The notes under the pieces were generated by a model that had not been told where the DNA came from, searched no databases, and saw only the letters and a list, made by a program, of their open reading frames with translations. Below are positions 497 to 44,366 of a stretch of 64,000 nucleotides of DNA, piece by piece. Numbering within the stretch: the first letter of the stretch is position 1; each line of letters begins with the position of its first letter. The stretch spans positions 2,282 to 66,281 of IMG/VR virus record IMGVR_UViG_3300009093_000008; one strand, written 5' to 3'. Position numbers and translations under genes: made by a program. Source of the DNA: a virus.

Positions 497-1714
497 TCAC
501 AGGTAGTGTCCGATCGCAGTCTCTGCTTCTTCGACGGTGTGCCCGCGAAGTTCGGTCTCGGTCTTCAGAGCATACAGCTCCGCAAGCGAGTGCGGTGACG
601 CGACGTCCTTCCCGAGCCACTTCGACGCCTGCTCGGCCGGAAGCTTGTCCACCTCGATCTTAGCCAGACACCGCCCGGGCCGGGACACGGCCGGGTGGAG
701 CTGCTGGATACGTTCGTTCGAGGTGATGAGGAACATCACACGCATGCCCTGCCCGAGGATCCCGTCCGCCATGTTCAACAGCCGCGCGAGAGACTGCCCC
801 GTCACGCCGCCCTCGCGGGCGCACAGCAGCTCGCCGGAGTCTTCCATGACGAGCACACGCCACGGCACCCTGGCGCCGCCCGGCCCGTTATAGTGATCAC
901 CCATGGCCAACTCGAACAGGTAGTTCGGGTCGCCCCACAGGTTCTCCGGATCCACAATGCAGTGGAAGGTGGACCAGTCTTTCCACGCGTGCGCCAGGCT
1001 GCGGATCATCGTGGTCTTCCCAGTTCCGGCCGGGCCGTGCAGCAGGATGATGCGAGGGCCGTTCGGGTCCGGGTGCTCGATCTTGTGCAGCTCGGCGAAC
1101 CGGGACTGTACTTCCGTGTCGTAGTTGTCGCTGATCTCTGACCAGTGCGGAACGACAATGTCACGATAGGACGGCTTCGGGCCCATGCTGGTTGCGCGCC
1201 AGAAGTAGAACGGCACCAGGTGTGACCGGTCTTCTTCCTTGCCCATGGGAAGCTCGCCGTCGAGCTTGAGGCGCAGTCCCTTCAGGATCTTGTCGGCGCG
1301 GGCCGAAGAGTCCGCCCACACGCTGATAGATCCGAGACACCGGTTGCCGTCAGAAAGTTCCACGCCGATGATCGCGCCCCAGTCATCGCCGAGGCGGCAG
1401 GATGAGAGAAGGCCGGGTACGGGGGCTTCATCGCCGGGATAAGCCCACGTAGCTACCTCGGTTCCCATCAGATTCCTGTGTGGTTTCACGAGACGCGAGA
1501 ACCCGTCCGGCTGCCAGCGGCGGAAGTGGCGGAACCGCTTGTATAGCTGCGCCATGAGGACCGTGGTCATGGACAGGTCGTCGCCGTTCAGCGCGATGTC
1601 CGGCGCTTCCAGGCCGATGCGACGCATAAGCTCGTCAAAAGCGTCGGGAAGGGGAATGACAATGGTCATGTTGTCGGGGATGTCAGTGGTCATGGTCATC
1701 GGCTGTCTGGTCAT
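497..1714 (-). CDS. AAA+ ATPase (BCS1/DUF5925-like)
   Basis: Walker A GPAGTGKT, Walker B VLVMED, LLNMADGILGQG and second region of homology PAVSRPGRC; start set at the ATGA overlap with the upstream stop (1711-1714). Confidence 0.85.
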   Translation of the reverse strand: MTRQPMTMTTDIPDNMTIVIPLPDAFDELMRRIGLEAPDIALNGDDLSMTTVLMAQLYKRFRHFRRWQPDGFSRLVKPHRNLMGTEVATWAYPGDEAPVPGLLSSCRLGDDWGAIIGVELSDGNRCLGSISVWADSSARADKILKGLRLKLDGELPMGKEEDRSHLVPFYFWRATSMGPKPSYRDIVVPHWSEISDNYDTEVQSRFAELHKIEHPDPNGPRIILLHGPAGTGKTTMIRSLAHAWKDWSTFHCIVDPENLWGDPNYLFELAMGDHYNGPGGARVPWRVLVMEDSGELLCAREGGVTGQSLARLLNMADGILGQGMRVMFLITSNERIQQLHPAVSRPGRCLAKIEVDKLPAEQASKWLGKDVASPHSLAELYALKTETELRGHTVEEAETAIGHYL

Positions 1715-2073
1715 CGGCTGTCCTCTTCCAGTTGATCCCAGTCGGTATCCGGATCCATCTTGTTCAGCAGGACGCGGGGGAGCACGATCACCCGTTCCCA
1801 TTCCCGAGTGTCGTACCCCGGTTCGGCGGGCTCGTTGAACCAGTACGCGCTACACGCATTGTAAGGGCTGTTCGGGGTCGCGTAGTTGAGGCGGTAGTAG
1901 CCCGGCTCGAACGGCGGTTCCTCCACGATCTCCTCGATCTCGGCTTCGTCGGGTACGTAGATGTTCCGCCCCGTGCTGTCGATCGCGTACTTATGGCGGG
2001 GTGTGGCGACCGACTGCACGAATCCCTCGTCGGTGGTTTCCATCTCGTAGGTGACCCGGAAACGCTTGCTCAT
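1711..2073 (-). CDS. hypothetical phage protein (paralogue of 61888-62235)
   Basis: MSKRFRVTYEME...PPFEPGYY; ATGA overlaps at both ends. Confidence 0.65.
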   Translation of the reverse strand: MSKRFRVTYEMETTDEGFVQSVATPRHKYAIDSTGRNIYVPDEAEIEEIVEEPPFEPGYYRLNYATPNSPYNACSAYWFNEPAEPGYDTREWERVIVLPRVLLNKMDPDTDWDQLEEDSR

Positions 2074-6970: not shown

Positions 6971-7130
6971 CCCTTTAGACAGGAGGTGGGCGCCTTTAGC
7001 CTCGGGCGCCCTACGAGGAGATACGGATCACCCCCTGATCGGAGCGGCAACCTCTTCCATGATGGCTAACAGCTGCTTCATGGGCATCACTCCAATCAGA
7101 GAGGGACTGCATTACATACAGGGTAACGCA

Positions 7131-8657
7131 TCAGGTCGGAGCATGACAGAACGGGCAGGCCTTCGGATGGGACGCGAAAACGTACCCTCGCGCACAACGC
7201 TGACACGTTACCGTGCCGTACGCCGCCGCGTAGTCCATGGACTGTAGACCCTTCAGCTCCGTGATGGCCCAGACGAGGGCATCCAGACGGTCCGGGCTCT
7301 GCGACGAATGCGGAGTCCACCGCGTCATCTGAGTTTCCAGATCGGCGAACGTACCGTAGTGATGCACACGGCCTTGGTTGTAGAGCGACGCCACCGGCTC
7401 CGCGCGCAGGGCCTTACCCCGCGACGCCCGGACCGTCCGCACCGGAACGTTCTCGTCAACCGTGGCGATGAGGCTGGGGACCCAGTCGGCGCCGTGGTTC
7501 ACCTCGGCCACGATGCAATCTGCGTGCCACTCGTTGTAGGCCTTGATCAGCTGGTGACACGCCTGGTTCGGCGTGCCCTTCAGCGAGTAGTCCGCGAGTA
7601 TGTAGCCGTGGCCGTTGTAGTCCACGCCCGCGACGACGATACCGTGCTCGTCGGAATCCGGGTTGTCCGAACCGGCGGGGTCGTAGCCGACCACGACACG
7701 TTCGAGCGAGATCAAGTCCAAGTCGTCGTGCCAGGTGCCCGCAGTGTCGAGCCACTTGCCCTTCAGGCGCCCGGAAGAGATCATGTCGCGGGTCCACAGC
7801 GCACCCTCGATGTCTTCCAGCAGCTGACCCTCAAGCTCCTGAAGTCCAAGCCGCGTGCCCTCGTACCGGCGTTTCATCTCGGCCAGGGCGATGGCGGACA
7901 GGTTGTCCTGGTTCTCGAACGTCGTGCCTCGGGTGAGGTGAACCGTCCCGTCATCACGGCTCACCAGGTCGAGCATCAAGTCAGTAGGACGCGGGGTGGT
8001 GGTTACTACAATGCGCGGGTGCAGGCCCTTACGGACCGCCGGGACCAGCGCCGCATACCACGTCTCGCTATACCGCCAGGAACCCAGCTCGTCACACCAG
8101 GCGCCCGACAGGTTGTAGCCACGGACCTTCTCCGGGTTGTCGGCGGTGAACCCGTAGATGACGGAGCCGTTCGGAAGCGACAGCTCCAGCTCGTTCCGGC
8201 GGTAGCCGTAATCGATCTTGGCGTTCTTCAGGGCCGGGATGATGGCGTTTCCGAAACAGGTCTTCTGGCACGCGTTGAAGGTAGGGGCCAGAACGGCGTA
8301 CTCGCCGGGCTCCGTGATCGCACGGGACAGGATCCAGTTCGATCCGACGAACGTCTTCCCGATGCCACGACCGGCCATGAGAAGCCAGATCATCCAGTCG
8401 TCATCGACCCCGCTACAGCCACAGGAGAAGCCACGGGAGTCTTCCAGGTGGTGCGACGGATGCTCAGGCGGAAGCTGCTTCGGTCTGGCCAAGTCGAAGT
8501 AGGGAAGCGGCGCCTTGGCCTTGGCTTCCCACTCCAGCTTTGCTAGAAGCTTCTGTTTCGCGTCAAGCGGCCAGCTACGCCAGTCGTCATAGGACTGGAC
8601 AGGTGGAAGCTCCACCCGGTGGACGTTGACATTCGGGTCTTCCGGATCGAGTGCCAA
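7131..8657 (-). CDS. terL: terminase large subunit (Terminase_6-type ATPase + nuclease)
   Basis: Walker A AGRGIGKT, Walker B GAWCDE, TTTPR coupling motif, nuclease VVGYDPA...D, C-terminal SPDRLDALVWA. Confidence 0.95.
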   Translation of the reverse strand: MALDPEDPNVNVHRVELPPVQSYDDWRSWPLDAKQKLLAKLEWEAKAKAPLPYFDLARPKQLPPEHPSHHLEDSRGFSCGCSGVDDDWMIWLLMAGRGIGKTFVGSNWILSRAITEPGEYAVLAPTFNACQKTCFGNAIIPALKNAKIDYGYRRNELELSLPNGSVIYGFTADNPEKVRGYNLSGAWCDELGSWRYSETWYAALVPAVRKGLHPRIVVTTTPRPTDLMLDLVSRDDGTVHLTRGTTFENQDNLSAIALAEMKRRYEGTRLGLQELEGQLLEDIEGALWTRDMISSGRLKGKWLDTAGTWHDDLDLISLERVVVGYDPAGSDNPDSDEHGIVVAGVDYNGHGYILADYSLKGTPNQACHQLIKAYNEWHADCIVAEVNHGADWVPSLIATVDENVPVRTVRASRGKALRAEPVASLYNQGRVHHYGTFADLETQMTRWTPHSSQSPDRLDALVWAITELKGLQSMDYAAAYGTVTCQRCARGYVFASHPKACPFCHAPT

Positions 8658-8665
8658 TGACCCCC

Positions 8666-8851
8666 TTACAGGTCACGGCCGCGAGCGCGGAAGACTTCCC
8701 TTACCTCGCCGAGGTCCCAGATGCGGGCACACTTCAACTGAACAGGTTCCGGAAACCATGGCTTCTCTGTGAGCTGGAAGGCGCGCTGACGTGACACCCC
8801 CAACATTTGGGCGATTTCGAAGACGCCCCCCACGTCGAGCTTACTAGTCAT
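8666..8851 (-). CDS. AlpA/excisionase-like HTH DNA-binding protein
   Basis: MTSKLDVGGVFEIAQMLGVSRQRAFQL...FPEP....RIW; no RBS, TATAGT 7 nt upstream (leaderless). Confidence 0.8.
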   Translation of the reverse strand: MTSKLDVGGVFEIAQMLGVSRQRAFQLTEKPWFPEPVQLKCARIWDLGEVREVFRARGRDL

Positions 8852-8874
8852 GGAAGCAACTATACTAGACGTCA
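8851..8874. promoter_or_regulatory. bidirectional leaderless promoter (overlapping -10 hexamers), putative
   Basis: TATACT (+, 8861-8866) lies 7 nt before ATG 8874; TATAGT (-, 8864-8859) lies 7 nt before ATG 8851. Confidence 0.6.
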
Positions 8875-9335
8875 TGGGCAAACCAGACGAGGAACGGCTG
8901 ATACGTCGCCGGACAGACGCTCTCGCCATGAAAGCTGAGTCCGCCACCTACGAACAGATAGCCGATGCCCTGGGTTACAGCAACAAGAGCCACGCCTGGA
9001 AAGACGTACAGGCCGGGCTGGAGAAGCTGCGGCAGGAGGAGCGCGAGGAGGCCGAGCGGCTGCGCGTGTTGCAGCGCATACGCCTCGAAGCGCTGCTACA
9101 GGCGGTGTGGCCACAGGCCACCGGACAGGATCCCGCACGCCCCGGCGTCAACCTGCGACACGTCGAGGTGGCGCTGAAGATCATGGAACGACAGGCCAAG
9201 AACGAGGGCTCCGACGCCCCGGTGAAGACGGACCTGACGATCAGCACCAACGTAGACGCGCGGATCGTCGAGCTGATGGAACAGCTGGGCATAACACAAG
9301 CTCCCCGGACGATCGCCGGGGAGCTTGAGGACTAG
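8874..9335 (+). CDS. terminase small subunit-like HTH protein
   Basis: HTH TYEQIADALGYSNKSHAWKDV followed by RLEALL..VWP.A...ALKIMERQAK..G.DAP, an actinophage terS-type pattern; close to terL. Confidence 0.7.
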   Translation: MGKPDEERLIRRRTDALAMKAESATYEQIADALGYSNKSHAWKDVQAGLEKLRQEEREEAERLRVLQRIRLEALLQAVWPQATGQDPARPGVNLRHVEVALKIMERQAKNEGSDAPVKTDLTISTNVDARIVELMEQLGITQAPRTIAGELED

Positions 9336-9337
9336 GT

Positions 9338-9526
9338 CTACTGTCCGCCCTTTTGCACGAACTGCTTCACGAACTCCTCGGAGTTCTTTTCCAGGACGTC
9401 ATCGATCTCGTCGAGGAAATCTAGGGCTTCGTCGGCTGCGGGGGTTTCCGGGGTGACTGACTCGGCAGTCTCGGGCTGTTCTTCCTCTTGGGAGGACTTG
9501 CCAGGCTTCACGAGCTTCTGTCCCAT
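9338..9526 (-). CDS. pup: prokaryotic ubiquitin-like protein Pup
   Basis: 62 aa, acidic disordered N-terminus, C-terminus LDFLDEIDDVLEKNSEEFVKQFVQKGGQ matching the Pup consensus; strong RBS GAAAGGAGG just upstream. Confidence 0.93.
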   Translation of the reverse strand: MGQKLVKPGKSSQEEEQPETAESVTPETPAADEALDFLDEIDDVLEKNSEEFVKQFVQKGGQ

Positions 9527-9549
9527 GAAACCTCCTTTCGGCCATGCCC

Positions 9550-9801
9550 TCAGGATGCGCTCCACGTTGGCTCGCCGTCAACCGGCGTCTTGTCTCCACT
9601 GCACACGTTCATGTGCGAGACCAGCGCCGCCATGGCCTTCTCATAGTCACTTCCTGCGCTCCGCACGAGTCCGCAGGAGTGATAGATACGGAACGCCCGA
9701 TCATGGCGTGACCAGTGGATACAGTCCAGATCGTAGCAATCCACCTTGTGAGAGACGACCTTCTCCCGACGTCGGGATGCCTCGTTGTCCTGCGTGCTCA
9801 T
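9550..9801 (-). CDS. hypothetical protein
   Basis: 83-aa ORF with ATGA overlap to the upstream gene. Confidence 0.5.
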   Translation of the reverse strand: MSTQDNEASRRREKVVSHKVDCYDLDCIHWSRHDRAFRIYHSCGLVRSAGSDYEKAMAALVSHMNVCSGDKTPVDGEPTWSAS

Positions 9802-10805
9802 CGCCGCGTCTCTCTTCCCGTAGCCCGATAGAAGGTGCGACCGCTGACCTTCAGTCTCTCCATGATCTGCTTCTCGGACAGATCACCCCGGGTGAAGAGG
9901 ATCCGGGCCGCCTCGTCCCGCTCGGCGCGGGTGAACCCTTCGGGTCGCTTGCCCTCCATGAGCCGTTCGACAACCACCCGGTCAGGCTCATCGGATTCAC
10001 ACTCCGCAGCCATCACGACAGGCACGCCGGACCCCAGAGTGCCCGGGTCATCCCAGGAAGCAGGGGTACCCCAGCCCTCCCTCTCGGCCCGTCTCCGCGC
10101 CGAGGTGACGGCCGCCTTCTCCCGGTCACCAATCGGAGTCGGAGGCGTGTCGCCGATCTTGTCGTACAGCTCGGCCACAGCTACCGCCGTCTCCAGATAC
10201 ACGCGCTCCACCTGACCGTTGACTACCTTGTGCAAGGGGCCACCGCCGTTCAGCGGCCTACGCCCGATCATCTCAACCAAGGTATTGACCGGATAGCCAA
10301 GGGCAACCAGCGAACGGAGACGGTACCTGGTCAGGTCAGCCGGAACGTAATCCTGGCTATGCCGCTGCATTACCTCGTCCCCAGTGATTGCCAAGATGGC
10401 GTCGCCCGTTCGAGCCTGAACACGAGGAGGCGGAGGAATGCGTCCCGCCTCACCATCGCTGCGGCCGGTCAAGATTCGCAACAGGCTACGTACGTGGATA
10501 CCCGAAACCCGCGCCTGCGAAGGCAGCCCCATCCCCTTGACGTCCCGCAACCAAATCATATGCTCGCGGATCACGTCGCCGTCATGCATCGGACGCGAAC
10601 GCAACTTCGCGAGCTTGTGCGTCCTGTAGCGCTCCCGGTAGCAGCGAGCGCAGCGGCAACCCGCCGAATAGGTGGCGGAGAATCCGTGGCGCCGCCGGTA
10701 CACCCTGCCGTACTGGTCTGGTAGACGTATGTACGTCTCGTCATTCTCGACGGCGTCCGTGGGGATGCCGTTCTCGTCCCACGTTCGCTCACTCGGCTTC
10801 GTCAT
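9798..10805 (-). CDS. multi-HTH DNA-binding protein with HG..Y..GCRC..C motif
   Basis: CRC motif plus HTH-like segments and a C-terminal SEKQIMERLKVSGRTFYR HTH; common next to actinophage replication genes. Confidence 0.7.
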   Translation of the reverse strand: MTKPSERTWDENGIPTDAVENDETYIRLPDQYGRVYRRRHGFSATYSAGCRCARCYRERYRTHKLAKLRSRPMHDGDVIREHMIWLRDVKGMGLPSQARVSGIHVRSLLRILTGRSDGEAGRIPPPPRVQARTGDAILAITGDEVMQRHSQDYVPADLTRYRLRSLVALGYPVNTLVEMIGRRPLNGGGPLHKVVNGQVERVYLETAVAVAELYDKIGDTPPTPIGDREKAAVTSARRRAEREGWGTPASWDDPGTLGSGVPVVMAAECESDEPDRVVVERLMEGKRPEGFTRAERDEAARILFTRGDLSEKQIMERLKVSGRTFYRATGRETRR

Positions 10806-11241
10806 CTTCGCTCCTAGGCAGAACGGCTATACCGTCCGCATCCGCGAGCCGGTGGTTCGAATGCACGTGAACCGGGACTTCCCACGGAAACAGCCACGAA
10901 TGGACGAGCAGGCCATCCTCATAGGCTTCGGAGCGGTGCGACTCAACCCAGCCGTGACAGCCGGTCGTGCCAGTGCCGCACAGCAACAGCAGATTAGACA
11001 TGTCATTGATCCACGGGTTCTTAGTCCCGCCCATGCCGCGCGGCATCCGATGGTGGATCGAGAAGGCGCCACCGCCGACGATGTAAATTCCGCACCGCTC
11101 ACACTTGTCATCAGCCCGCGTCCACACATCTATGCGCGTCTCAACGGCAGGACCCGTGTTCTTCTTCTTCGGCTTGATTCGGTTTCGTTGGAGCCTGGTC
11201 TTACGCTGCATCGGGACCTTGCGCCTCCAGGGCTTGTCCAT
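10789..11241 (-). CDS. HNH endonuclease
   Basis: CERCG...HHR.PRGMGG...NLLLLCG.GTTGCHGWVE; AGGAGG RBS. Confidence 0.85.
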   Translation of the reverse strand: MDKPWRRKVPMQRKTRLQRNRIKPKKKNTGPAVETRIDVWTRADDKCERCGIYIVGGGAFSIHHRMPRGMGGTKNPWINDMSNLLLLCGTGTTGCHGWVESHRSEAYEDGLLVHSWLFPWEVPVHVHSNHRLADADGIAVLPRSEDDEAE

Positions 11242-11629
11242 CGTCCTCCTTGGCCAACTGCCGCCGTAGTCGTGGAGTGAACACCATACCACCGGCTACG
11301 CCACTGAAGGCCACATCTTGTTCTGCCCACCGGAAGCAGTTCGCCAGAACCGGGCAACGGCGACAGGATTCCAGAGCTTTCCCAATGGACTGCTCATCGT
11401 TGGTCACCCAAAAGACGGTGGTCTTGTCGCCGAGACACGCGGCCTCTTCATGCCAGTCCGGGTTGTCCGGGACGCTAAGCGGGGAATGCTCCCGCTTGTC
11501 TCCGCCGGGACACTCAGCCCCCTTAGCCTTATGGTACGGCAACACTGGGGTGGGTGACCGGAACCACCCGTCGCACCAGGCGCAACGCCTAGGCTGACGG
11601 GTGGGATACCGGGGAGGCTTACCGGCCAT
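11201..11629 (-). CDS. whiB: WhiB family transcription factor with N-terminal extension
   Basis: W.EEAAC...C..CPV...C...GVAGG: four-Cys WhiB pattern. Confidence 0.85.
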   Translation of the reverse strand: MAGKPPRYPTRQPRRCAWCDGWFRSPTPVLPYHKAKGAECPGGDKREHSPLSVPDNPDWHEEAACLGDKTTVFWVTNDEQSIGKALESCRRCPVLANCFRWAEQDVAFSGVAGGMVFTPRLRRQLAKEDDGQALEAQGPDAA

Positions 11630-11813
11630 GGCAGCAGCCGGGGCGCCAGCCGCCGGTCACCTTGTCGGATAGCCGACGCTTAGGCGGCCGGAACATCCCA
11701 AACGGAACGTCATCCACATCACAGGCCTGATACGGAGACTCAGGCTCGGGTGCGATGAACACCGTGGGCCCCGTTGGTGTCCCGTAGGTGGGTTCCGGCT
11801 TGAAGTACCTCAC
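11619..11813 (-). CDS. hypothetical protein
   Basis: 64-aa ORF overlapping both neighbours. Confidence 0.45.
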   Translation of the reverse strand: MRYFKPEPTYGTPTGPTVFIAPEPESPYQACDVDDVPFGMFRPPKRRLSDKVTGGWRPGCCHGR

Positions 11814-12337
11814 GATGAGCCCCCGAGTTCGTTCCAGACGCTGACCCGTTGCGGGTCCTCGTAGTCAGCCTGCTGAGACATCCGCTTGTGCTTCTGGAAG
11901 TCCTGGCCCTGAAGCCTGGCCATCCACTGCAACCGTGACTCGCCCTTGGACGAAACCCGATCGGGGTGACACGTCGGGCAGTGCTTCACGGCGCCGCCGT
12001 ACGAGAGCGGGAGGCCCTTCACCTCGATCATCCCGTGATCGCAGGGGGCTGTATGCGTACACGAACAGCTCGGGCGACCACAATGGTTCTCGACGTTGGG
12101 AGCGAACGACGGGGCGCTAGCCTGACGGCGGACCTTGATCTGCTCCATGACGACGCCGGGCGCCATCGTCGGGTAGTGCCACGCCGGAGCCACGTCGAGG
12201 AGGGCCGAGCGGACTTCGATGTAAGTGTTCTTCTTAAACACCTCAAGCCACATGTTCGTCATGGCGTTGGTGGGTACCTGGGTGGGACAGATCGCCGCGA
12301 CCATGCCGAGCAACTGCTCGGTTTCCCTGCGATTCAC
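11810..12337 (-). CDS. replicative helicase loader/inhibitor-like protein
   Basis: N-terminal MNRRETEQLL.MVAA...W...pattern; directly after the replication initiator (GTGA overlap). Confidence 0.55.
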   Translation of the reverse strand: MNRRETEQLLGMVAAICPTQVPTNAMTNMWLEVFKKNTYIEVRSALLDVAPAWHYPTMAPGVVMEQIKVRRQASAPSFAPNVENHCGRPSCSCTHTAPCDHGMIEVKGLPLSYGGAVKHCPTCHPDRVSSKGESRLQWMARLQGQDFQKHKRMSQQADYEDPQRVSVWNELGGSS

Positions 12338-13377
12338 TCCGGCTCCTCGTTCCCGAACCAGTCGGCTTCCCAAGCCTCCTGGGACATCCAGTCTGGTTTT
12401 CCTGTCGTCTTCCCCGCCGCCGTCGCCTGCTGCTTCTCACCTTCGAGGTCATCATCCCACGACCCGCGATTGATCCACGTGGCGGGGTGCGGAATGAACC
12501 TGACTTCACGGTTGGTAGCCTTGCAGAGGTCACCATAGCACACGGCCGCCTCCGAGAGTCGGCTAGGGCTGGCGCCAGCTCGGATGGCCTTCGTCCAGTT
12601 CCGCAGTGCGTCGGCCTTGCCGATCTTGCGAGGGTAGTTGATCCAGAACTGTTCGAACTCGGGGGGGTAGTTTCCATTCCCCTTCCTAGTTCCACTTCCC
12701 TTACCTTTCCCTTCCTCCTGGGAATAGTCTGGGAACAGTCCCGGACCGTTCTGGGAATTACCCGAACCAGCAGGTGGGGGGCTGTCACCCCTAGCCTTGT
12801 TACAGTGGATGTGCGCGGTTTTGATGTTTGACGGGTAGTCAGAACCTCCGCGTGAACGTGGGATGAGGTGGTCGGGTGACGGGTCGTTTTCCGGCTGCGG
12901 AGCGTCAGGGGCGTACTGCGGAGAGTCATGATCGTAGACGTTGCCAACTAGGGCGCGGCTTTCGTTGGTGGGGGCGCCGCAGATGTGACACATGTAGCCA
13001 TCTCGGCGAAAATACATCTCGCGGTTGTCCCGATTGCTCAAGGACGGGGGCGCCAGACGCCCCGGCTGGGGCTTGTCGATCCGCTGGTGCTTACGGAAGT
13101 TTACGATGTAGACGGCGCGCTCTTGAGCCCGCCCCGCACGGTAGGCGTGGACGAGTTCCGCTTTCTCCAGCGCCTCCATCCAGTCGGCCACTTGAGACAG
13201 CGTGTGGTCATCGTACACAAAGGCCTTGGCCTTCATGTACTCCGGAGTCCACCGCAACAACCCCTCGTCATCGGCCACGTTCCAGGCCGCTATGAACAGC
13301 AGCCGGGCCCCGAGAGGGAGGGCGCCTATCGTCTCGTCTTCCCAGAACTCCGGCTTGATGGTGCGGATTCGGCTCAT
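12334..13377 (-). CDS. phage replication initiator with internal HNH domain
   Basis: N-terminal RIRTIKPEFW.DE; internal RDGYMCHICG..DHLIPRSRGG...N...H..CN; C-terminal FEQFWINYPRKIGK...PHPATWIN. Confidence 0.8.
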   Translation of the reverse strand: MSRIRTIKPEFWEDETIGALPLGARLLFIAAWNVADDEGLLRWTPEYMKAKAFVYDDHTLSQVADWMEALEKAELVHAYRAGRAQERAVYIVNFRKHQRIDKPQPGRLAPPSLSNRDNREMYFRRDGYMCHICGAPTNESRALVGNVYDHDSPQYAPDAPQPENDPSPDHLIPRSRGGSDYPSNIKTAHIHCNKARGDSPPPAGSGNSQNGPGLFPDYSQEEGKGKGSGTRKGNGNYPPEFEQFWINYPRKIGKADALRNWTKAIRAGASPSRLSEAAVCYGDLCKATNREVRFIPHPATWINRGSWDDDLEGEKQQATAAGKTTGKPDWMSQEAWEADWFGNEEPE

Positions 13378-13414
13378 TCGCAGCTCCCTAGCGGAACGGT
13401 CTTGGAACTATCCC

Positions 13415-13424
13415 ATGCTACACT
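13415..13424. promoter_or_regulatory. divergent promoter pair between replication (-) and recombination (+) operons, putative
   Basis: TGC-TACACT (+, extended -10, hexamer 13419-13424) overlaps TAGCAT (-, 13420-13415) at the strand switch. Confidence 0.5.
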
Positions 13425-13449
13425 GACCGAACCACCGAAGGGAGCACAC

Positions 13450-13644
13450 ATGGAGAACACGCCCGTCACCGCAAAATGCGGTTGCGTCCTCATCATCGGC
13501 GAGGTCGGTGTGCCGCTGCACATCCGGGAAGACGGCACTACGGTCGGTACAGATGCCCTGGTCAGAGTGTCGTGGTGCAACGAACACGCCCCGGCAGATG
13601 AGAAGCTGCACAAGTACAGCGTCCAGCCGAAGGAACCGGCGTGA
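13450..13644 (+). CDS. hypothetical protein
   Basis: MENTPVTAKCGC...; GAAGGGAG RBS; GTGA-coupled to the SSAP gene. Confidence 0.65.
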   Translation: MENTPVTAKCGCVLIIGEVGVPLHIREDGTTVGTDALVRVSWCNEHAPADEKLHKYSVQPKEPA

Positions 13645-24738: not shown

Positions 24739-25584
24739 CTACACGCTCGACAGGGTCAGTTGCACGGACAGGGTAGCAACTTCGGTGTTCGTCTTAACTG
24801 TAGCCGGAGTAAGCAACCCATGGTCGAACAAGATGCCGCCGTTGACGGTCGGGTTCGGCTGACCCGAACCGTTCGGGCCATACTCCACGCCAGTACCCAC
24901 GGCGTAGTTGGCGTTCGCCGTGAACGTCCCACCCCCCGGGGCGGAAATGCTGATAGTCGTGTCCCCGTTGTTTACTACGGCCGTAGTCTTGGCGTACTGG
25001 GTGGGGTTCACGTTGCCGTAGCCGATGCAGAAGAAACTACCGATGGGGATCGACGTGGGGTTGCCGTTGGCGTCGATGAGGAGCATGGGCTTAACGGCCA
25101 GTGACGTATAGGTCGAACCGTTCAGCAGGGACGAGGTGAGGGTGGTCAGGTTCGTGGTTCCGTACACGAACAGCCCCGCTTCCGTGATGGTTCCGTTTCC
25201 CTGGTTCGCCCCGAAGAAGCAGTCCACCTCCACCGACGTGGGCCCCGTGTTGGAAGCGTTCGTGATGATCGCACGCGCCACCTCGTTGCCTAGCGCTATG
25301 TCGGCGGCGTTCGGCGTTGCCGAAGAGGTCCCGATGGCTCCGAAACAGTCGCTGAGATCTCCGTACGCCAAAGGCAGCGGTGACCCCCACCCCGAATTTT
25401 GCCGGAAGGCCAGCGCGTATATGAACGCGTTGCCGATGTACCCGAGCCCCGCCGTGGTGATCAGGTTGCCGCCCTCGGCCTCCTCGTGGATCTGGCCGGT
25501 CTCGGCGTCGCGCGTGGTCAGCTTCAGGTGTCCTTCGATCGCCAGATCGCCCAGGTTTTGCAGATGCTTCATGATCAGCTCCAA
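24739..25584 (-). CDS. minor tail protein
   Basis: NLITTAG...AIGT....P.AAD.AL.NE..R...ITEAGLF pattern of phage tail/baseplate proteins. Confidence 0.7.
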   Translation of the reverse strand: MELIMKHLQNLGDLAIEGHLKLTTRDAETGQIHEEAEGGNLITTAGLGYIGNAFIYALAFRQNSGWGSPLPLAYGDLSDCFGAIGTSSATPNAADIALGNEVARAIITNASNTGPTSVEVDCFFGANQGNGTITEAGLFVYGTTNLTTLTSSLLNGSTYTSLAVKPMLLIDANGNPTSIPIGSFFCIGYGNVNPTQYAKTTAVVNNGDTTISISAPGGGTFTANANYAVGTGVEYGPNGSGQPNPTVNGGILFDHGLLTPATVKTNTEVATLSVQLTLSSV

Positions 25585-27074
25585 ACGAACGTGCCGTAGA
25601 GTATCCCAGTGTCCCAGCCCGAGTTACCAGGGGCCGGAAGAACGGGATACTGGAAGTAACCCCACTGTCCATACTTGGCAGGGATGTTACCGCCCGTGGC
25701 GGTGTAGGAAAGGCCGTATCCGGAACTGACGGGCACCTGCGCATTGGCCCCGTATCCTGCCCAGCTGTAATGATTGGCTACCTGCGTAGCGGTCAAAGAC
25801 CGATTGTAGATAGCTACTTCGCCCACCGTAAGACCGACAAGCGTATTACGCGAGGAGTTCGCTCCGATAACAACCGGGTTCGTGGTCACCGGCGGCGGGC
25901 TGAAGAATGACTGCGAAGACTTCACCGCACCGTTCACGTATCCCGTGATGCTGCGAATTCCGTACTGCCGCACCACCACGATATGTGACCACTGGTTCGT
26001 ACCCGCCAAGCTTCCCGCAGCGGCAACCACCAGCCCGGTATTGCCGTTCTGGCTAAAGACGACAGACCCATCTCCACGAATGTAGAGGGAGTATTCTGAC
26101 GTATCGTTGGTCTTGGCGATGATCCCATACGTATCCGTCACAAGCCCGGACAGCGCGACCGTAGGTTTAATCCAGGCCTCGATCGTCAAGTTGCTGGATA
26201 TCTGAAGCTGCGTAGAGTTCGGGATCGATATCTTGTCGTTCACCGTAGTGAACTTGCACGCCCCGCTAAAGGTACTACCGTCCGGGTTGTTGTACGGACC
26301 GCTCACACTCGGGATGATTCCAGGGTTAGTTGACGTTCCCGTGGCCGAGTTCTTTACGTAGCCAGTGACGCCCATGTACGCGCTGGAGTCGTACCCGAAT
26401 TGCGACAACTGCACGAGATCGAGATAGTAGATGTTCGTATTCGCCGAGTTCGTACACGTGACCGTGACCTTCAAGTAAAACGCATTCGACGGAGCCGCCC
26501 CGCCGAACGGAACCTGAGTCCACGCGTTCAGCGTGCCCGTGACCGTGGCCGAGGTCGTGGTGGATATCAAAGTAGCTGAAGAGTCATACCAAGATATGGC
26601 AGCGGTGAAGGTCTTCGAAGCAACAGTGCTGAAGACCCAGGCCGACCCCGCGTAGACGAGCCCCGGCAGCGTGGCGAAGTAGAACCCGGTCGTGGCCCCG
26701 GCGTTCGTCGTAGTCGCCGTCAGCCGCAACGAATGCGTACCGTCCTTTGCCTGCGTAGTGGACTGAGCGGCGGCGGCGTTGGACGCAACCCACGTTCCCA
26801 CGCCGGACTCGAAGCTCTGGTCCGCCGCCGACAAGACGTTGCCGAACTCGTTCAGGCGCCAGTATCCCACCGGCCCCGCATCCTGAATGATCGCCACGTC
26901 GTAAGGCGTCAACATCTGAGCCTGACTGAGCGCGAACTGGCTTTCGTGGACACCAGCGTTCGGGTTGTCTCCGAGGAAGACGGTGATGGCCTCGGTCGGC
27001 GACAGCGGGATGACCGGACCGGCGGCGTTGTTCAGCTGGTTTATGACGTCCGTAAGCGTAAGAACCCGAGGCAT
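25575..27074 (-). CDS. tail protein with carbohydrate-binding and LamG/ConA-like domains
   Basis: GYWRLNE, CBM4/9-like SFESG...W, TIEAWIKP...WSHIVVV...YVNG...EVAIYNRSLT. Confidence 0.8.
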   Translation of the reverse strand: MPRVLTLTDVINQLNNAAGPVIPLSPTEAITVFLGDNPNAGVHESQFALSQAQMLTPYDVAIIQDAGPVGYWRLNEFGNVLSAADQSFESGVGTWVASNAAAAQSTTQAKDGTHSLRLTATTTNAGATTGFYFATLPGLVYAGSAWVFSTVASKTFTAAISWYDSSATLISTTTSATVTGTLNAWTQVPFGGAAPSNAFYLKVTVTCTNSANTNIYYLDLVQLSQFGYDSSAYMGVTGYVKNSATGTSTNPGIIPSVSGPYNNPDGSTFSGACKFTTVNDKISIPNSTQLQISSNLTIEAWIKPTVALSGLVTDTYGIIAKTNDTSEYSLYIRGDGSVVFSQNGNTGLVVAAAGSLAGTNQWSHIVVVRQYGIRSITGYVNGAVKSSQSFFSPPPVTTNPVVIGANSSRNTLVGLTVGEVAIYNRSLTATQVANHYSWAGYGANAQVPVSSGYGLSYTATGGNIPAKYGQWGYFQYPVLPAPGNSGWDTGILYGTFVWS

Positions 27075-28453
27075 TAAGGCCCCCCTCCTGTCGCTATCCG
27101 GGCCGCCGTGATGTTGTACTGACGATATCCTACCAGGGTCCCCGTGACCTGGTTACTGACGACCAGGAAGGTATCCTCGATGCCCGGGAGGTAGCTGTTC
27201 TGGCTGTCCTGGACATACGTACTCTTCCAGGTGATGACGTCCCCGCTACGAATGTGTCCGCTGAAGGTCTCACTCGTAACGAACGATACCCGTTCTTCGG
27301 GCAGGGCAAAGGTGTGCAACTCCTGGCGCCCGCGAACCTGTGCCTGCCCGACGCTCTGAAAGTTGGAGTCCGCGATGTACTGGCCGAAGATGCCCTGATT
27401 GGGGAGGCCCGAAAACTGGCTTATCGACGTCGTGTCTTGGACCCTCGTCAACACGGGGGCGTCATAGTTGTACTGGAAGGTGATCAGCGCAGCGGCAGCC
27501 GGAGCGGTGTCGGAGTTGTTCGTCAGCGACCAGTTCCCTACGGCGTTCTTAACCATCAGCCACTGGGTGGTCGGGAGACCCAGCGTAGGATCGGCGATGG
27601 AAACGGTTTTGAAAACCCCTCCGATGACTAGTTCGGCATTGGGGTTTTGCGTGTCGGGGGTGAAGGTCATCGGCCACGTAGTCTGCGTTCCGTCCCCGAG
27701 CCATGCCTCTTGCTGCCGTGCCGTAAAAGAGGCTCCACGAAGTGTGATGGAGTTCCGGATCGACGAGGCATCCCACAGATACTGACAGTTCTTTTCATAC
27801 GTCCCGGTGAAGCCGGGAACGTAGTTTACGCCACTGACGTCTGACACATTGTCCGACAGGAAAGCGGTGGGAGCGCCCGCCTGCGTTTCGTTGTAGAAAT
27901 GAACGTCCCGATTCTCATCTATGAACCAGCCATATGTCGCAACGGTGCTTGCATAACCGCACACGGTCGTCAGGGCGCTACTCAAGTCGGAATAGACGAT
28001 CTGGAATCGCGGCAGCAGCGGGCCGGGGCTCACGTTGTTGGACGTCAACCCACAGTTGGCTTGAGAGACGATGGTTTTGACAACCTGATCAGCCGTTTGA
28101 TTGCTGAAGTCACCGAAGACGGTGGCGTGGTCCGCTAGGTAGGTCCAATCGGAACACTGGAGTTCCCACTCCTGAAGGGTTGAGCTGGTGACTAGGAAGT
28201 TCGGAACGGTCACTACGCCGGAGAATATGACCTCGTTCAAACCCAAATCTGTGAACACGATCGTGGAAAGGGGGGGAACCGATATGTTCACCCCCTGCTT
28301 TTCGAACCACAGGTAGAAAGTCGCGGTGGAAGACTGCCGCGTCCACTGTTGCGTGATCGTCCACGAAGCATCCTCAAGGTACGGCGACAGATCAACACCG
28401 TTGATCACGCACGAGTATTGAGGGTTGGAGATGTTATCGGCCGAGGCAACCAT
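27074..28453 (-). CDS. minor tail (hub/baseplate) protein
   Basis: Immediately downstream of the tape measure; beta-rich, WFIDENRDVHF. Confidence 0.7.
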   Translation of the reverse strand: MVASADNISNPQYSCVINGVDLSPYLEDASWTITQQWTRQSSTATFYLWFEKQGVNISVPPLSTIVFTDLGLNEVIFSGVVTVPNFLVTSSTLQEWELQCSDWTYLADHATVFGDFSNQTADQVVKTIVSQANCGLTSNNVSPGPLLPRFQIVYSDLSSALTTVCGYASTVATYGWFIDENRDVHFYNETQAGAPTAFLSDNVSDVSGVNYVPGFTGTYEKNCQYLWDASSIRNSITLRGASFTARQQEAWLGDGTQTTWPMTFTPDTQNPNAELVIGGVFKTVSIADPTLGLPTTQWLMVKNAVGNWSLTNNSDTAPAAAALITFQYNYDAPVLTRVQDTTSISQFSGLPNQGIFGQYIADSNFQSVGQAQVRGRQELHTFALPEERVSFVTSETFSGHIRSGDVITWKSTYVQDSQNSYLPGIEDTFLVVSNQVTGTLVGYRQYNITAARIATGGGP

Positions 28454-31400
28454 TAAGACCTCATGTTCACGCCAGCGGAACCGAGGTGCTTCTGAACGAA
28501 GTATTTGTCGATCTTATCCACGAAGGAACGCATACTACGATCGTCCATGATGGTGCAGCCGTCGAAGTTCCAGTGGTGATGGTGGTTGGTGATGTGGGTG
28601 TGCCCGCCGAAGCCACCGGAACGGATCGCCGACGCCGGACCCGCCGGGATGATCATCTCCCGGGGGTGGATCTCCGCCATGTGCGCCTGGTAGCCAGTGT
28701 CCCATGCCCCTACGGCGTAACCGCCGGGACGGGACGCGACAGCCGCGACAGAGCCATACCTGGCCAGGATGTACCGCACGGCCGCGACGATGTTGGCGAC
28801 CGGGTCATAGATGTTGCTCGACAGCTTCGGGTCCCGGTACGCCATGAACGTCGTCATGATGGTCTGCATCAGACCACGCGAGGGGTCGCCCGCCTTGGCG
28901 TTCGAGTCAGTCAGGTTGATCGCGTTCGGGTTACCGCCGGACTCGCGCATGATGATCGTGTTGATCGCGCTCGACCACGACGAGGGCCAGCCTTCCGCAG
29001 CCTCGGCGGCAGCGATCCAGGTAGCCACGTTGCCACCAGGGGCCGTCCCAGCGCCCGCGACACCACCCGGGCGGCGGATACCCATGAACGTGTTGCCAGG
29101 CAGTGAGAGCGGGTCGTAGCCGATCGGACGAGACGTGTTGTACGCGTCGAAGATCTTGCCAGGGCTCACGTAGAACCCGACGTGACCCGGGAGCCCGGCC
29201 GGAGCGCCCGACGTGCCCGGGTTGTAGAACGCCAAGTCGCCGGGGACGGCGGTGGACTCCGACACCGCGACGGAAGCGCCCCACTGCGCCGAGGACACGC
29301 GCGGCAGGCTCACGCCCTGAGCGGCGTAGGACTTCTGCACGATGCCGGAACAGTCGTTGTTACCCCAGGTGTACGGCAGCCCGGAGAAGTGAGAGATGGC
29401 GTACGCCAGTGCCGCCGCCTCCTGCGCGACCGACACCGAACCGGTAACACCGTTGCCGGAGGCTACGGGGGCGACGCCTAGTTCTTGGTCCTTCTGCGAG
29501 ATGAAACTGAAGATCCCGTTTACAGCCATGTTGGCCGCGCCCTTACCCGCAGCAGCGGCAAGCGGCGAGTCCGGGAGCGCACCCACGGCCGCCTTCAGCG
29601 GCGCCAGAGCCACCGAAGCGGCAGCGATCAGCGCACCCTGGATGAACACCTTGCCCAGGCCCGCCAGAGCCGACACGACCAGACCGGGGATGCCTGCCAC
29701 CGTCTTAGCTGCGCCAGCCACGGCGCCCGCAGCGGTAGCCACGGCGCCACCAATCTGCGAGGCGCCAGACGGCCCGCTCACGGGAGAAGCAGAGCCGTTT
29801 ACGTATGACGTAAGCGTGGCAGCATCGACGAAGTGCCCGCCGCTCGGGTTGGTGTCCTGGTAGGTGATGCCGTTTACGCTGTCCTTCCACGCACCGTGGA
29901 ACACGCCGCTGGACACGCCGCCGCTGACGATACCGCCCGCGTCGAAGTGCGGGATGCTCTCGACCACACCGCCTCGGGCAAAGCTCGCGTTGATAGCGTC
30001 GATAGCGGCCTTCCCGCCGATACCGCGCGTCGCCTGAGGGGTGAGGATGCCCTCGCCCGGAGACAGGTACGCGTGAACCGAGTCAACCCCCGGGCCGTAG
30101 CCCGGCAGCACACCGCCGGACGCGAAGCTGACGTTCGGGATGTGCGCGCCGTCGAGCGCATGCACGCCGACGATGTCCAGCACCTTCGCCGCACCGCCGG
30201 TGAAAGCGTTCACCACGTTGATCACGACGTTAATCGGATCCGCAACGACCTTCTTAACCGCATTCCACGCCGAACTAATGCCTGAAACGATCGCGTTCCA
30301 CATCGTGATGGCGGCCGAGTGGATGTTATCCCACACGCCCTGAATGACGTTCTGGATGCCAGTAAATACGATCTGGGCTGTCGCCTTAAGCGTATTCCAG
30401 ATCCCAGAAACCGTGTTGGATATCGCGTTCCACATCGTAGTGGCAGCGGCCTGGATGTTATTCCATATTCCTTGAATGGTGTTCTGCATCGTAGTGAATA
30501 TGAGTTTGGCTGCGTTGAGAAGCGCATTCCAGATCGTTTGGATAACGGTCGAGATGGTATTCCAAATTGCAGTTCCGACCGCCAAAAGCGTATTCCACAC
30601 GCCCTGGATTGTCTGCGAGATCGCATTCCAGATCGCCGACGCTGCGACCTGAAGAGCGTTCCAGATCGTTTGGATGGTCGTGGATATCGCATTCCAGGTA
30701 GAGGTGGCGATCACCAGAAGCGTATTCCACACGCCCGAGATGGTGGCCATGATGGCATTCCATGTCGCATTCGAAGCAGTCAGAAGCGCATTCCATACCG
30801 TCGTGATAACAGTCTGGATTTCACCGAATACCGTTGTGGCAAGGGCCTTTACCTGGCCCCAGTTCGTACCGAAGAAGCTGAATATCGCATTCCAGACCGC
30901 GACCGTTACGGACTGGATCGTATTCCACACATTCGTTATCGTCGCAGAGATCGCGTTCCAGACGGTTGTCGCGGCGGACCTCAACGCATTCCAGGTCGCC
31001 ATGATAGCCGTCGACATGCCGGAGAAAATTACATCCGCCGCTACCTTGAGGCCAGACCATATCTGCTTCAGGGCGTTACCGATGTTCGTCCATGCGGCAT
31101 TCCAGGTGGCGGGGATGGCATCCCAGGCATGCGAGAGCGCGTTAAAGACGTTCCCGAAGGCATGGCCGACGTTCTCGAAGGCGTGAACGACGTTTTCGAT
31201 GGCGTGCCCGACGTTCTCGAAGGCGTGCCCGACGTTCTCGGCGGCGTGCCCGAGCTGCTGGTGAAACAGGATGACGCCACCGATGACGGTACCCAGCGCC
31301 ACCATCACGGACGCTACCTTGATGATGGTCGATATGAGATGTTCGTGCGCCGCAGTGAACCCGACCAGAGGGTCGAGGATCTCCACAAGGAGCTTCATAA

Positions 31401-42998: not shown

Positions 42999-44366
42999 CT
43001 AGATCTTGTACCATCCGCTAATGACCATGAAATCGCCGGTGGCGATCGCTTCCGGTGACGTATTCGTCAGAAGGGCGTCGTTGTCCACGCCAGAAGCCAA
43101 CGTGCCAGTCCGCGCCCAGGTGACAGTGCAGGTAGCAGTGCCAGACGACTGGGTGTACGCGTAAAGCGGGTGGTTCGAAAGAGCGGCAGACTTCCACGTG
43201 CCTTGCAGAATGGCGTACGTAGCCGCAGCAACAGGCAGCGTCAGGATCACGCCGGAAGAACCGAGGTTCGTACCGCTGCCGACAACAAGTTCCGCATGTA
43301 CCCAACAGAGGTTCCCGGCCCGCACGAAATAGCCACTCTGGGCACCACCGGCGCCAATGGCGAACCCAGTAGTGGCACTGAACGGGGTGAACGTTGAAGG
43401 CGCAACGACAGCCACGCCGCCAGCCCCGACAGACAGGCCCCCGTTCGTGGCAGGGGTAACCACCACCCCGCCAGAGCCAACCGCTATCCCGTTGCCAGCG
43501 GTAACCGATACCCCGCCAGCCGCGACCGTGATACCGCCGTTGGTGAGAGGAGCAACCGAGAAAGACCCCGACGTGTTGGTGATGCCGTTACCGGCGGTGT
43601 AGACACCCACGCCGTATACCTGAGTCCACGACAACGAGGTGGTGCCGGGGGTCACACCTCCCGTGATGTTCAGTGCCCACCCGGTACCGGCGTTGGTGGT
43701 GCCGCCCTCAACGTGGACCACCGCGCCGTTGTACTTCTGGAGACCCGTGTTCGTGACCGTGGCGGAATCCATGTCCGTCGAGCGCGTCAGCACATACTTT
43801 CCTGAAGCCGCGCCCTTGTTGGTAACGACGTAGATGCCGTTGCGCGAGGTGGTGGCCTCGTTCTTCACCAGGATCCGACAAGCCTGCCCTACCACGGTCC
43901 CACCCGACGAGTAGGTTCCGGTCGGTGCGTTGTTGACGATGACCGTAAAGCTAGTGGAGCTACCGGCAGTGTTGACCGTGAAGTTTCCGTTTGGGTTGTT
44001 CGTGGTGAACCCGGTAACCCCGGCGATGGTCACCGGCTGACCTACCGCCATGCCCGTAGTCGAAGCCACCGTGAATGTCACGGTTGTACCCGAGTTGGTG
44101 ACGTTCGTGATGGTCTGGGAGACGGCGGTCCAGGGAGTACCGCCGTCAAACGTCAAGATGCCGTTAGACGCCGCCGTGAGGGTGTCACCGACACCCCCGT
44201 TGCCCGCCGAAGCGTACACGGCAGGACCGAACGGCAGCGCCGCACCGGCGGTAGCGAACGAGCACGGCAGTTTGAAGTTCTCGCCGGACTGGAAGTCGTC
44301 CACGTACTGCTTCGAAGCGGCATCCGTGCTGTTCGCCGGATAAGCACCCAGTTGCTTAACGGCCAT
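42999..44366 (-). CDS. virion fibre/decoration protein
   Basis: DAASKQYVD motif, RILVKNE....NGIYVV, Gly/Thr-rich repeats; paralogue of 47707-48597. Confidence 0.7.
   Translation of the reverse strand: MAVKQLGAYPANSTDAASKQYVDDFQSGENFKLPCSFATAGAALPFGPAVYASAGNGGVGDTLTAASNGILTFDGGTPWTAVSQTITNVTNSGTTVTFTVASTTGMAVGQPVTIAGVTGFTTNNPNGNFTVNTAGSSTSFTVIVNNAPTGTYSSGGTVVGQACRILVKNEATTSRNGIYVVTNKGAASGKYVLTRSTDMDSATVTNTGLQKYNGAVVHVEGGTTNAGTGWALNITGGVTPGTTSLSWTQVYGVGVYTAGNGITNTSGSFSVAPLTNGGITVAAGGVSVTAGNGIAVGSGGVVVTPATNGGLSVGAGGVAVVAPSTFTPFSATTGFAIGAGGAQSGYFVRAGNLCWVHAELVVGSGTNLGSSGVILTLPVAAATYAILQGTWKSAALSNHPLYAYTQSSGTATCTVTWARTGTLASGVDNDALLTNTSPEAIATGDFMVISGWYKI

Follow-up and report, generated by a model that had tools for sequence, protein, structure and literature searches.

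This analysis addresses the question of why a bacteriophage should encode a prokaryotic ubiquitin-like protein (Pup), and what such a protein could do in an infected cell. The question is raised by a 64,000-nucleotide stretch of DNA from a soil phage (the window), which comprises bases 2282-66281 of the 66,281-bp IMG/VR record IMGVR_UViG_3300009093_000008, and in which a short open reading frame (ORF) at 9338-9526 encodes a Pup with its terminal Gly-Gly-Gln intact. In the cellular pathway, as given in a 2021 review (PMC8223512), Dop deamidates the terminal Gln and PafA ligates Pup to lysines; Pup itself shows no relation to ubiquitin, either in its sequence or in its structure. Pupylation is regarded as purely cellular, and the word "phage" is absent from this review and from a 2025 review (PMC12288473). 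We lean, with slightly better than even confidence, towards the reading that the phage Pup is a functional tag conjugated by host Dop and PafA, and that it is paired with a phage ATPase that docks onto the 20S proteasome.

The first step is to establish what the ORF encodes, and the features on which this rests are the following.

9338..9526, minus strand: phage pup, 62 aa, ATG at 9526-9524, TAG stop at 9338-9340, product ending ...FVQKGGQ
9531..9539, minus strand: ribosome-binding site GAAAGGAGG, 4 nt ahead of the pup ATG, a direct read of the sequence

The initial annotation had reported a 62-aa ORF at this place with a strong ribosome-binding site, and the same residues, position and GAAAGGAGG were recovered here. 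A longer form from GTG at 9565 (75 aa) was rejected, as it overlaps the 83-aa gene upstream and is without a comparable ribosome-binding site; the Pfam alignment of the product begins at residue 2 of the 62-aa form. Searching with Pup hidden Markov models (HMMs), a check that the initial annotation had proposed, gave 62.1 bits against PF05639 (E 9.7e-17; gathering cut-off 27 bits), the alignment covering residues 2-62 and positions 5-69 of the 69-position profile, and 57 bits against NCBIfam TIGR03687 (pupylate_cterm; cut-off 41.45 bits) over residues 35-62. Residues 37-62 align without a gap to the Pup chains of 3M9D, 7PX9, 7OXY and 4BJR, which represent complexes with Mpa, Dop and PafA, and 19 of these 26 C-terminal residues are identical to M. 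tuberculosis Pup in the solved complexes. All residues that are invariant across a nine-sequence Pup alignment are retained, the disordered N-terminal half has its full length, and the C-terminus is Gly-Gly-Gln directly before the stop codon (QKGGQ, TAG). None of the PHROG families matches the protein. Because both family scores and the alignment to solved Pup chains agree, the ORF is a Pup beyond reasonable doubt, and its membership of the family with an intact GGQ end is confirmed at the level of sequence.

The second step concerns the enzymes that would act on this protein. The whole 66,281-bp record contains no match to PF03136 (Dop/PafA), none to PF00227 (20S proteasome) and no true Mpa, a six-frame search with TIGR03689 giving no more than a generic AAA match of 14 bits; when the window was searched by local tblastn, Nocardioides Dop, PrcB, PrcA and PafA all returned nothing. 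The absence of dop, pafA, mpa/arc and prcBA that the initial annotation described for the window is thus upheld, and by PF03136, PF00227 and TIGR03689 it extends to the whole record. The typical dop-pup-prcB-prcA(-pafA) context is likewise absent around the phage pup. Where a locus is flanked on each side by 2.5 kb or more, dop, prcB, prcA or pafA lies near pup in 67 of 67 from bacterial genomes, 27 of 28 from metagenomes and 0 of 8 from viruses (a further 12 genome, 52 metagenome and 4 viral loci being too short to judge). The only usable metagenome locus without these genes nearby is on a 27,437-bp contig (L161), which may be a phage or mobile element. Cells of the kind that could act as hosts carry the machinery, since two genes of the Pup-ligase family and two proteasome genes are present in each of five Nocardioides and Kribbella genomes. 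As the phage is without Dop, PafA, Mpa and PrcBA, any Pup chemistry must therefore use host enzymes. An intact GGQ end, a complete genome and a record free of these enzymes bear out in part the earlier proposal, namely that of a Pup that sits in a genuine phage and would rely on the machinery of its host.

This arrangement is not confined to one record. Following the suggestion in the initial annotation to look across viral databases, we found Pup on at least 55 other IMG/VR contigs (12 in a first scan and 54 in a second; 12 + 43 in total), with a PF03136 Pup ligase in 0 of the 55 and a proteasome gene in 0 of the 12 first-scan contigs. All 54 second-scan loci pass a local Pup HMM and represent 37 distinct C-terminal sequences, with ends of GGE (33), GGQ (20) and SGQ (1), and the GC content ranges from 0.43 to 0.71. 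The flanks examined are phage modules, such as amidase with primase-polymerase, ribonucleotide reductase with RecA and ThyX, terminase with portal, and SNF2 helicase with PD-(D/E)XK nuclease. With the phage of the window these other Pup phages have only Pup and a weak terminase match in common. Three near-identical contigs (L009, L010 and L011) are informative on the terminal residue. Apart from four synonymous changes and the stop codon, their pup genes differ in the terminal codon, which is CAG (Gln) or GAG (Glu); this is a switch, found in nature, between a Pup that depends on Dop and one that is ready for ligation. A 174-kb contig of GC 0.38 (L002) carries a full-length Pup with a GGE end, its low GC suggesting hosts in low-GC pupylating lineages, and another phage Pup, of 77 aa (L007:7851-8081), has its helix motif duplicated internally (...VLDKIDEEL... 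then ...LLDEIDELLE...).

Deposited phage genomes gave far fewer matches. A tblastn search of 50,697 such genomes with the phage Pup found one record, MT835496.1, a 159-kb faecal metagenome phage without annotation, in which positions 43636-43716 match residues 36-62 only, at 74% identity. A bacterial Pup (P0006) gave no match in the same 50,697 records at E values up to 1, which indicates that tblastn is insensitive for Pup and that the count of one is a lower bound. The initial annotation knew of no characterised phage Pup, and a literature search, which did not extend to subscription journals and supplementary files, likewise found no paper describing one.

A gene of this kind might still be a functionless recent capture from a host, or host DNA mis-joined in assembly. 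Phages do acquire host genes, and a gene as short as pup could hitch-hike. The record has direct terminal repeats and is rated 100% complete by CheckV, and a terminal repeat of 123 bp was confirmed after its missing head had been added to the window. The GC content is flat across 5-14 kb (0.61-0.635, for a genome of 62% GC), and the GC at third codon positions (GC3) of pup, 0.74, is in line with the rest of the phage. The genome encodes the portal, tail tube, tape measure and large terminase of a tailed phage, together with a RecA-like protein, an exonuclease, WhiB and two HNH endonucleases; WhiB we take to be a marker of an actinobacterial host. In an independent assembly (Logan) of the probable source run the phage is a single contig of 66,188 nt, with 0 differences over 7000-11500, and a 679-nt contig that stems from another rhizosphere sample, in a separate study, covers 8889-9567, hence the whole of pup and both of its junctions. 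Because a clean Logan contig and a junction-spanning contig from another sample are both at hand, the chimera objection fails, and the contiguity across the locus that the initial annotation wished to see confirmed is in place (complete phage, 123-bp repeat, flat GC, junctions bridged independently).

The 679-nt contig also bears on the persistence of the gene. It holds 12 differences, one in the 189 nt of pup (Thr25 to Ala) and 11 in the neighbouring 447 nt, nine of these 11 being at third codon positions of the 8850-9335 frame. A groundwater contig over 9349-9504 has four differences, including Lys47 to Glu, and a 38-nt contig at 9383-9417 with three differences was left uncounted, as it may be another organism's pup. 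The gene persists, changing little, in related phage populations. Even the closest match in a set of 1.84 billion representatives shares only 59% identity with the phage Pup, so that the gene is no recent capture, and no Pup in the metagenome scan exceeds 56% full-length identity. With all invariant residues kept, a phage-like composition and the same gene in dozens of unrelated phages, we consider the passenger or artefact explanation largely refuted and very improbable.

Origin was judged by nearest-neighbour identities, as about 60 alignable columns were considered too few for a tree to resolve it. In the variable N-terminal half, Nocardioides Pups are the best match among named genomes (47% identity across 38 columns; E near 2e-4, the set having about 230 sequences), a weak hint from sequence that the host may be Nocardioidaceae-like. 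The search of the 1.84 billion representatives also returned two metagenomic proteins, P0009 (188 aa) and P0022 (157 aa), with two or three tandem Pup-like repeats, each with ...VQKGG and then K or Q, behind a signal-peptide-like N-terminus; these could be poly-Pup precursors or secreted Pup-like proteins.

The third step is to ask what accompanies Pup in the same genome. The most telling companion gene, left unmentioned in the initial annotation, encodes an ATPase with a GQYL-type tail.

497..1801, minus strand: DUF5925-type classical AAA ATPase; public gene call from 1714 (405 aa, P0158); ending in G-H-Y-L (codons 500-511)

The protein scores 42.3 bits against PF00004, its nearest solved sequences being AFG2, Cdc48 and Rpt, and homologues annotated with PF19347 (DUF5925) match it at E 2e-71 (39% identity) and weaker. 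It probably belongs to the DUF5925-AAA proteins of Actinomycetota, and 609 homologues match it at E values no higher than 1e-3. Among the 121 members listed, which include the two forms from the window, 106 end in G-x-Y-L (52 of the 106 in GQYL), three have near variants (GQYI, SSYL, GAFV) and 12 are without the tail. An alignment of 44 sequences, most of them chosen from tail-bearing members, shows no variation in the columns of Walker A, Walker B, sensor-1 and the arginine finger. The AlphaFold2 model has a mean predicted local distance difference test score (pLDDT) of 77, with a beta-rich N-domain, an AAA core modelled confidently (190-385) and a tail that is disordered (396-405). In Foldseek the top matches are YjoB and the heptameric Bcs1, with proteasomal Rpt/PAN and p97 ranking after them. 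An identity as Mpa was ruled out (TIGR03689 23.3 bits against a cut-off of 504.75, and 14 bits in six frames). The literature search found no paper mentioning DUF5925.

The interest of the tail lies in what is known of it elsewhere. According to PMC12288473, GQYL is essential for proteasome opening by Mpa and PafE, its Gln being dispensable, and the bacterial proteasome activators listed are only Mpa, PafE/Bpa and Cpa. The phage ATPase, a classical-clade AAA protein with a flexible G-H-Y-L tail, resembles Mpa/ARC and PafE/Bpa with their GQYL. Mpa contains a coiled coil and OB domains, in contrast to the single small beta-rich N-domain of the phage protein, whose fold is nearest to YjoB/Bcs1. 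The tail makes the phage protein a candidate 20S-docking proteasome activator.

Homologues of the ATPase occur in few other phages. The only cultured phages with a match to the last residue are the mycobacteriophages Myrna, Phabba and ScoobyDoobyDoo, whose proteins (labelled "AAA-ATPase") belong to the same DUF5925-AAA family at 37-38% identity. Myrna gp262 (L179:2638-3858, annotated "ATPase") ends in AVGQYL and lies between a ribose-phosphate pyrophosphokinase gene and nadV. Nine IMG/VR homologues (L236, L238, L239, L241, L243, L244, L246, L247 and L248), and the weaker L249, are without a YL end; most have V/I/L-G-F at or a few residues from the end, with related G-F or G-I further in for L243 and L247, and V/I/L-G-F may be a second type of C-terminal docking motif.

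Since the phage has none of the enzymes, its Pup most likely enters the host pathway. Host Dop would deamidate the terminal Gln, giving Glu, the product would be joined by host PafA to lysines of target proteins, and the tagged proteins would be unfolded and fed into the host 20S proteasome. The flexible GHYL tail of the phage ATPase would dock into the 20S alpha-ring in the manner of the GQYL tails of Mpa and PafE. The pay-off would be a degradation flux that is kept or raised once host gene expression falls, serving amino-acid recycling or the removal of host proteins; in cells, a role in amino-acid recycling when nitrogen is lacking has been proposed for the Pup-proteasome system (PMC8223512). 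Deamidation, ligation, docking and benefit to the phage are all inferred from sequence.

The same intact determinants for binding PafA and Dop would also suit a decoy, in which an excess of free Pup occupies PafA, Dop or the coiled coils of Mpa, the ATPase perhaps caps the 20S particle unproductively, the Pup-proteasome system of the host is thereby shut off, and phage proteins escape both tagging and degradation. Free Pup-GGQ is reportedly no proteasome substrate (abstract of PMC3769308) and so could accumulate. Reviews have raised the notion that lysines are avoided in actinophage proteins as a way round pupylation (PMC13696103), and a putative major capsid protein of this phage (36832-37794, minus strand, 320 aa, no Pfam match) has 0.9% Lys and a lysine-free stretch over 59% of its length; against this, the overall lysine content of the phage, 3.8%, is unremarkable at 62% GC and is not informative on lysine avoidance. 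The retention of the full N-terminal half speaks against a pure enzyme blocker, as a protein that merely blocks PafA or Dop would not need this disordered segment. Mpa is said, in the title of a 2010 report by Striebel, to engage the Pup N-terminus. A decoy aimed at Mpa would, if anything, be weakened by the proline-rich middle of the phage Pup, 33 of the 54 second-scan viral Pups end in ligation-ready GGE, and the motor motifs of the ATPase, none of which an inert cap would need, are all kept. We therefore regard a decoy, the principal competing explanation, as rather unlikely. The tag reading is preferred because the enzyme-binding half is intact, the N-terminal half is retained, Gln and Glu switch among alleles, and the motor motifs are preserved.

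Whether Pup and the ATPase belong together is a separate matter. The two may be unrelated, with Pup serving host enzymes or acting as a decoy while the ATPase does, for example, Bcs1- or YjoB-like chaperoning with a tail that is not meant for the proteasome. The best whole-fold matches are indeed YjoB and Bcs1 and not proteasomal ATPases, 7.6 kb separates the genes in the window, most Pup phages are without the ATPase and most ATPase phages without Pup, and in nine of the 13 IMG/VR contigs that match the ATPase strongly, the C-terminus is V/I/L-G-F(x) and not YL. However, the G-x-Y-L end is disordered and present in the 106 of 121 listed members already noted, and in PMC12288473 the motif is reported only for proteasome activators. 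Across 151 sampled genomes of Actinomycetota, DUF5925 occurs in seven; the four with a strong match all have a proteasome, and among the three with weak partial matches the one checked has none.

A second, unrelated phage (L217:168-3602, also L216 and L242) bears more directly on the link. Its ATPase is 35% identical to that of the window, and it stands in a same-strand array of five genes: the ATPase (409 aa, TGYL), an RlaP-like nucleotidyltransferase, DUF6899, Pup (68.5 bits, GGE end) and an RNase-H-like nuclease. That two very rare genes should meet in two unrelated phages, once in a single array, is suggestive. A complex prediction for the phage ATPase with the phage Pup scored 0.09 against a mark of 0.32, which speaks neither for nor against binding. 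On balance we judge an absence of any relation between the two parts to be distinctly unlikely, and we put forward tentatively, as a possibility that falls well short of even, a two-part kit of some actinophages for commandeering the host proteasome, in which phage Pup is attached through host PafA and the DUF5925 ATPase serves as an alternative 20S cap, perhaps reading Pup-tagged proteins.

We acknowledge that a number of observations weigh against a tag that works together with a docking ATPase. The ATPase was found in 0 of 12 other Pup contigs by protein search and in 2 of 43 by DUF5925 HMM, both being one phage type, and Pup lies within 10 kb in only one of the 13 IMG/VR contigs with a strong ATPase match; Myrna has a GQYL ATPase and no Pup. 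The ATPase itself scores 22.8 bits against DUF5925 (PF19347), under the Pfam cut-off of 27, and the only Nocardioides genome searched (G014) is without a DUF5925 gene; Pup similarity gives no more than a hint to Nocardioides as the host. The segment ahead of the conserved helix in the phage Pup is proline-rich, with the last Pro 8 residues ahead of the LDEID motif; elsewhere the median distance is 21 (77 genome loci) or 16 (129 representatives, of which 12% are equally short). The ligase and the depupylase grip the C-terminal part of Pup in the form of two short helices, and Pup bound to Mpa forms one long helix (PMC8223512). The proline-rich segment may shorten this long helix, as would suit either a changed reader or a looser hold by Mpa, and it hints that Mpa is perhaps not the preferred reader of the phage Pup. 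Residue 47 is Lys where Pups otherwise have Glu; a fixed specialisation at this position was ruled out, as the groundwater variant contig carries Glu and restores the usual LEEN motif. No RNA runs containing 8600-10100 are listed, which says nothing on pup expression. Finally, no close relative of the phage was found by single-protein scans with Pup or with the 335-aa neighbour, a terminase search gave only four contigs at 42% identity, and megablast of 7000-13500 against the 50,697 phage records had no match, so that conservation within the lineage is testable only through the variant contigs.

The immediate surroundings of pup place it as the final gene of a leftward string (HNH, WhiB, HNH, HTH protein, 83-aa protein), where HTH denotes helix-turn-helix.

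9550..9801, minus strand: unnamed 83-aa gene adjoining pup upstream with a 23-nt gap; coding GC3 signature; no Pfam or PHROG family
9798..13377, minus strand: leftward gene string ending in pup, with HNH, 187-aa, 64-aa, WhiB, HNH and HTH protein genes
12334-13377, minus strand: HNH endonuclease, Pfam HNH 27.7 bits
11201-11629, minus strand: WhiB, Pfam 44.7 bits
10789-11292, minus strand: second HNH, 18.4 bits, under the Pfam cut-off
9798-10805, minus strand: 335-aa HTH protein, phrog_1590 E 3.3e-29; HTH about 18 bits, under the Pfam cut-off
8850..9335, plus strand: 161-aa gene convergent with pup, 2-bp gap; phrog_645 E 6.1e-23, label "Rnase E"; no Pfam match
8666-8851, minus strand: small leftward ORF between pup and the terminase
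7131..8657, minus strand: large terminase, 680 bp downstream of pup; Terminase_6N 66 bits, Terminase_6C 54.4 bits

The initial annotation had described the convergent neighbour as terS-like at a distance of 2 bp; the gap is real, but a terS identity is unsupported, as Pfam gives nothing and the sole match is to phrog_645, "Rnase E". No tRNAs were found, and near pup on the minus strand there is no sigma-70-like promoter and no convincing terminator. Elsewhere in the window, the tape measure (28453-33444, minus strand, 1,663 aa) carries NlpC/P60 peptidase and SLT transglycosylase domains near its C-terminus, and a tail protein (25575-27074, minus strand) has a lectin-like Laminin_G_3 domain at 84 bits; its match to a clostridial receptor-binding domain (19.6 bits, below the cut-off of 23.8) reflects the shared lectin fold.

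Set beside the Pup of cellular Actinomycetota, the phage protein is alike in its similar size, its acidic disordered N-terminal half and its LDEIDDVLE...FVQKGGQ C-terminal half, and unlike in being a virus-encoded orphan, at most 59% identical to any representative, with a proline-rich middle and Lys47. The other phage orphan Pups likewise stand alone amid replication, nucleotide-metabolism or packaging genes, with a ligase in 0 of 55; their phages are unrelated, and the G-x-Y-L ATPase is found only here and in one other type. New here is the occurrence of Pup and a G-x-Y-L DUF5925 ATPase in the same phage. Ubiquitin genes of eukaryotic viruses, such as v-ubi of baculoviruses, provide a parallel, in that the virus carries the modifier and the host supplies the conjugating enzymes, although the modifier is a different one, as are the chemistry and the domain of life. 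Just as eukaryotic viruses interfere with ubiquitin, phages would, with a Pup of their own, be seen to intervene in what corresponds in bacteria to the ubiquitin-proteasome system. A further use of such a Pup is as a direct handle on a question already in print (PMC13696103), namely whether the Pup-proteasome system shapes actinophage infection (the lysine-desert hypothesis).

In summary, the sequence of this phage suggests that it probably taps the protein-destruction system of its host. Its companion ATPase points to a widespread and unstudied family as a candidate activator of the proteasome, which Myrna, Phabba and ScoobyDoobyDoo, phages that grow on M. smegmatis, make testable. If the two-part kit is true, the virus would choose what the host proteasome destroys, this would stand as the first case of a virus taking over a proteasome in bacteria, and the DUF5925 family would represent a fourth class of bacterial proteasome activator.

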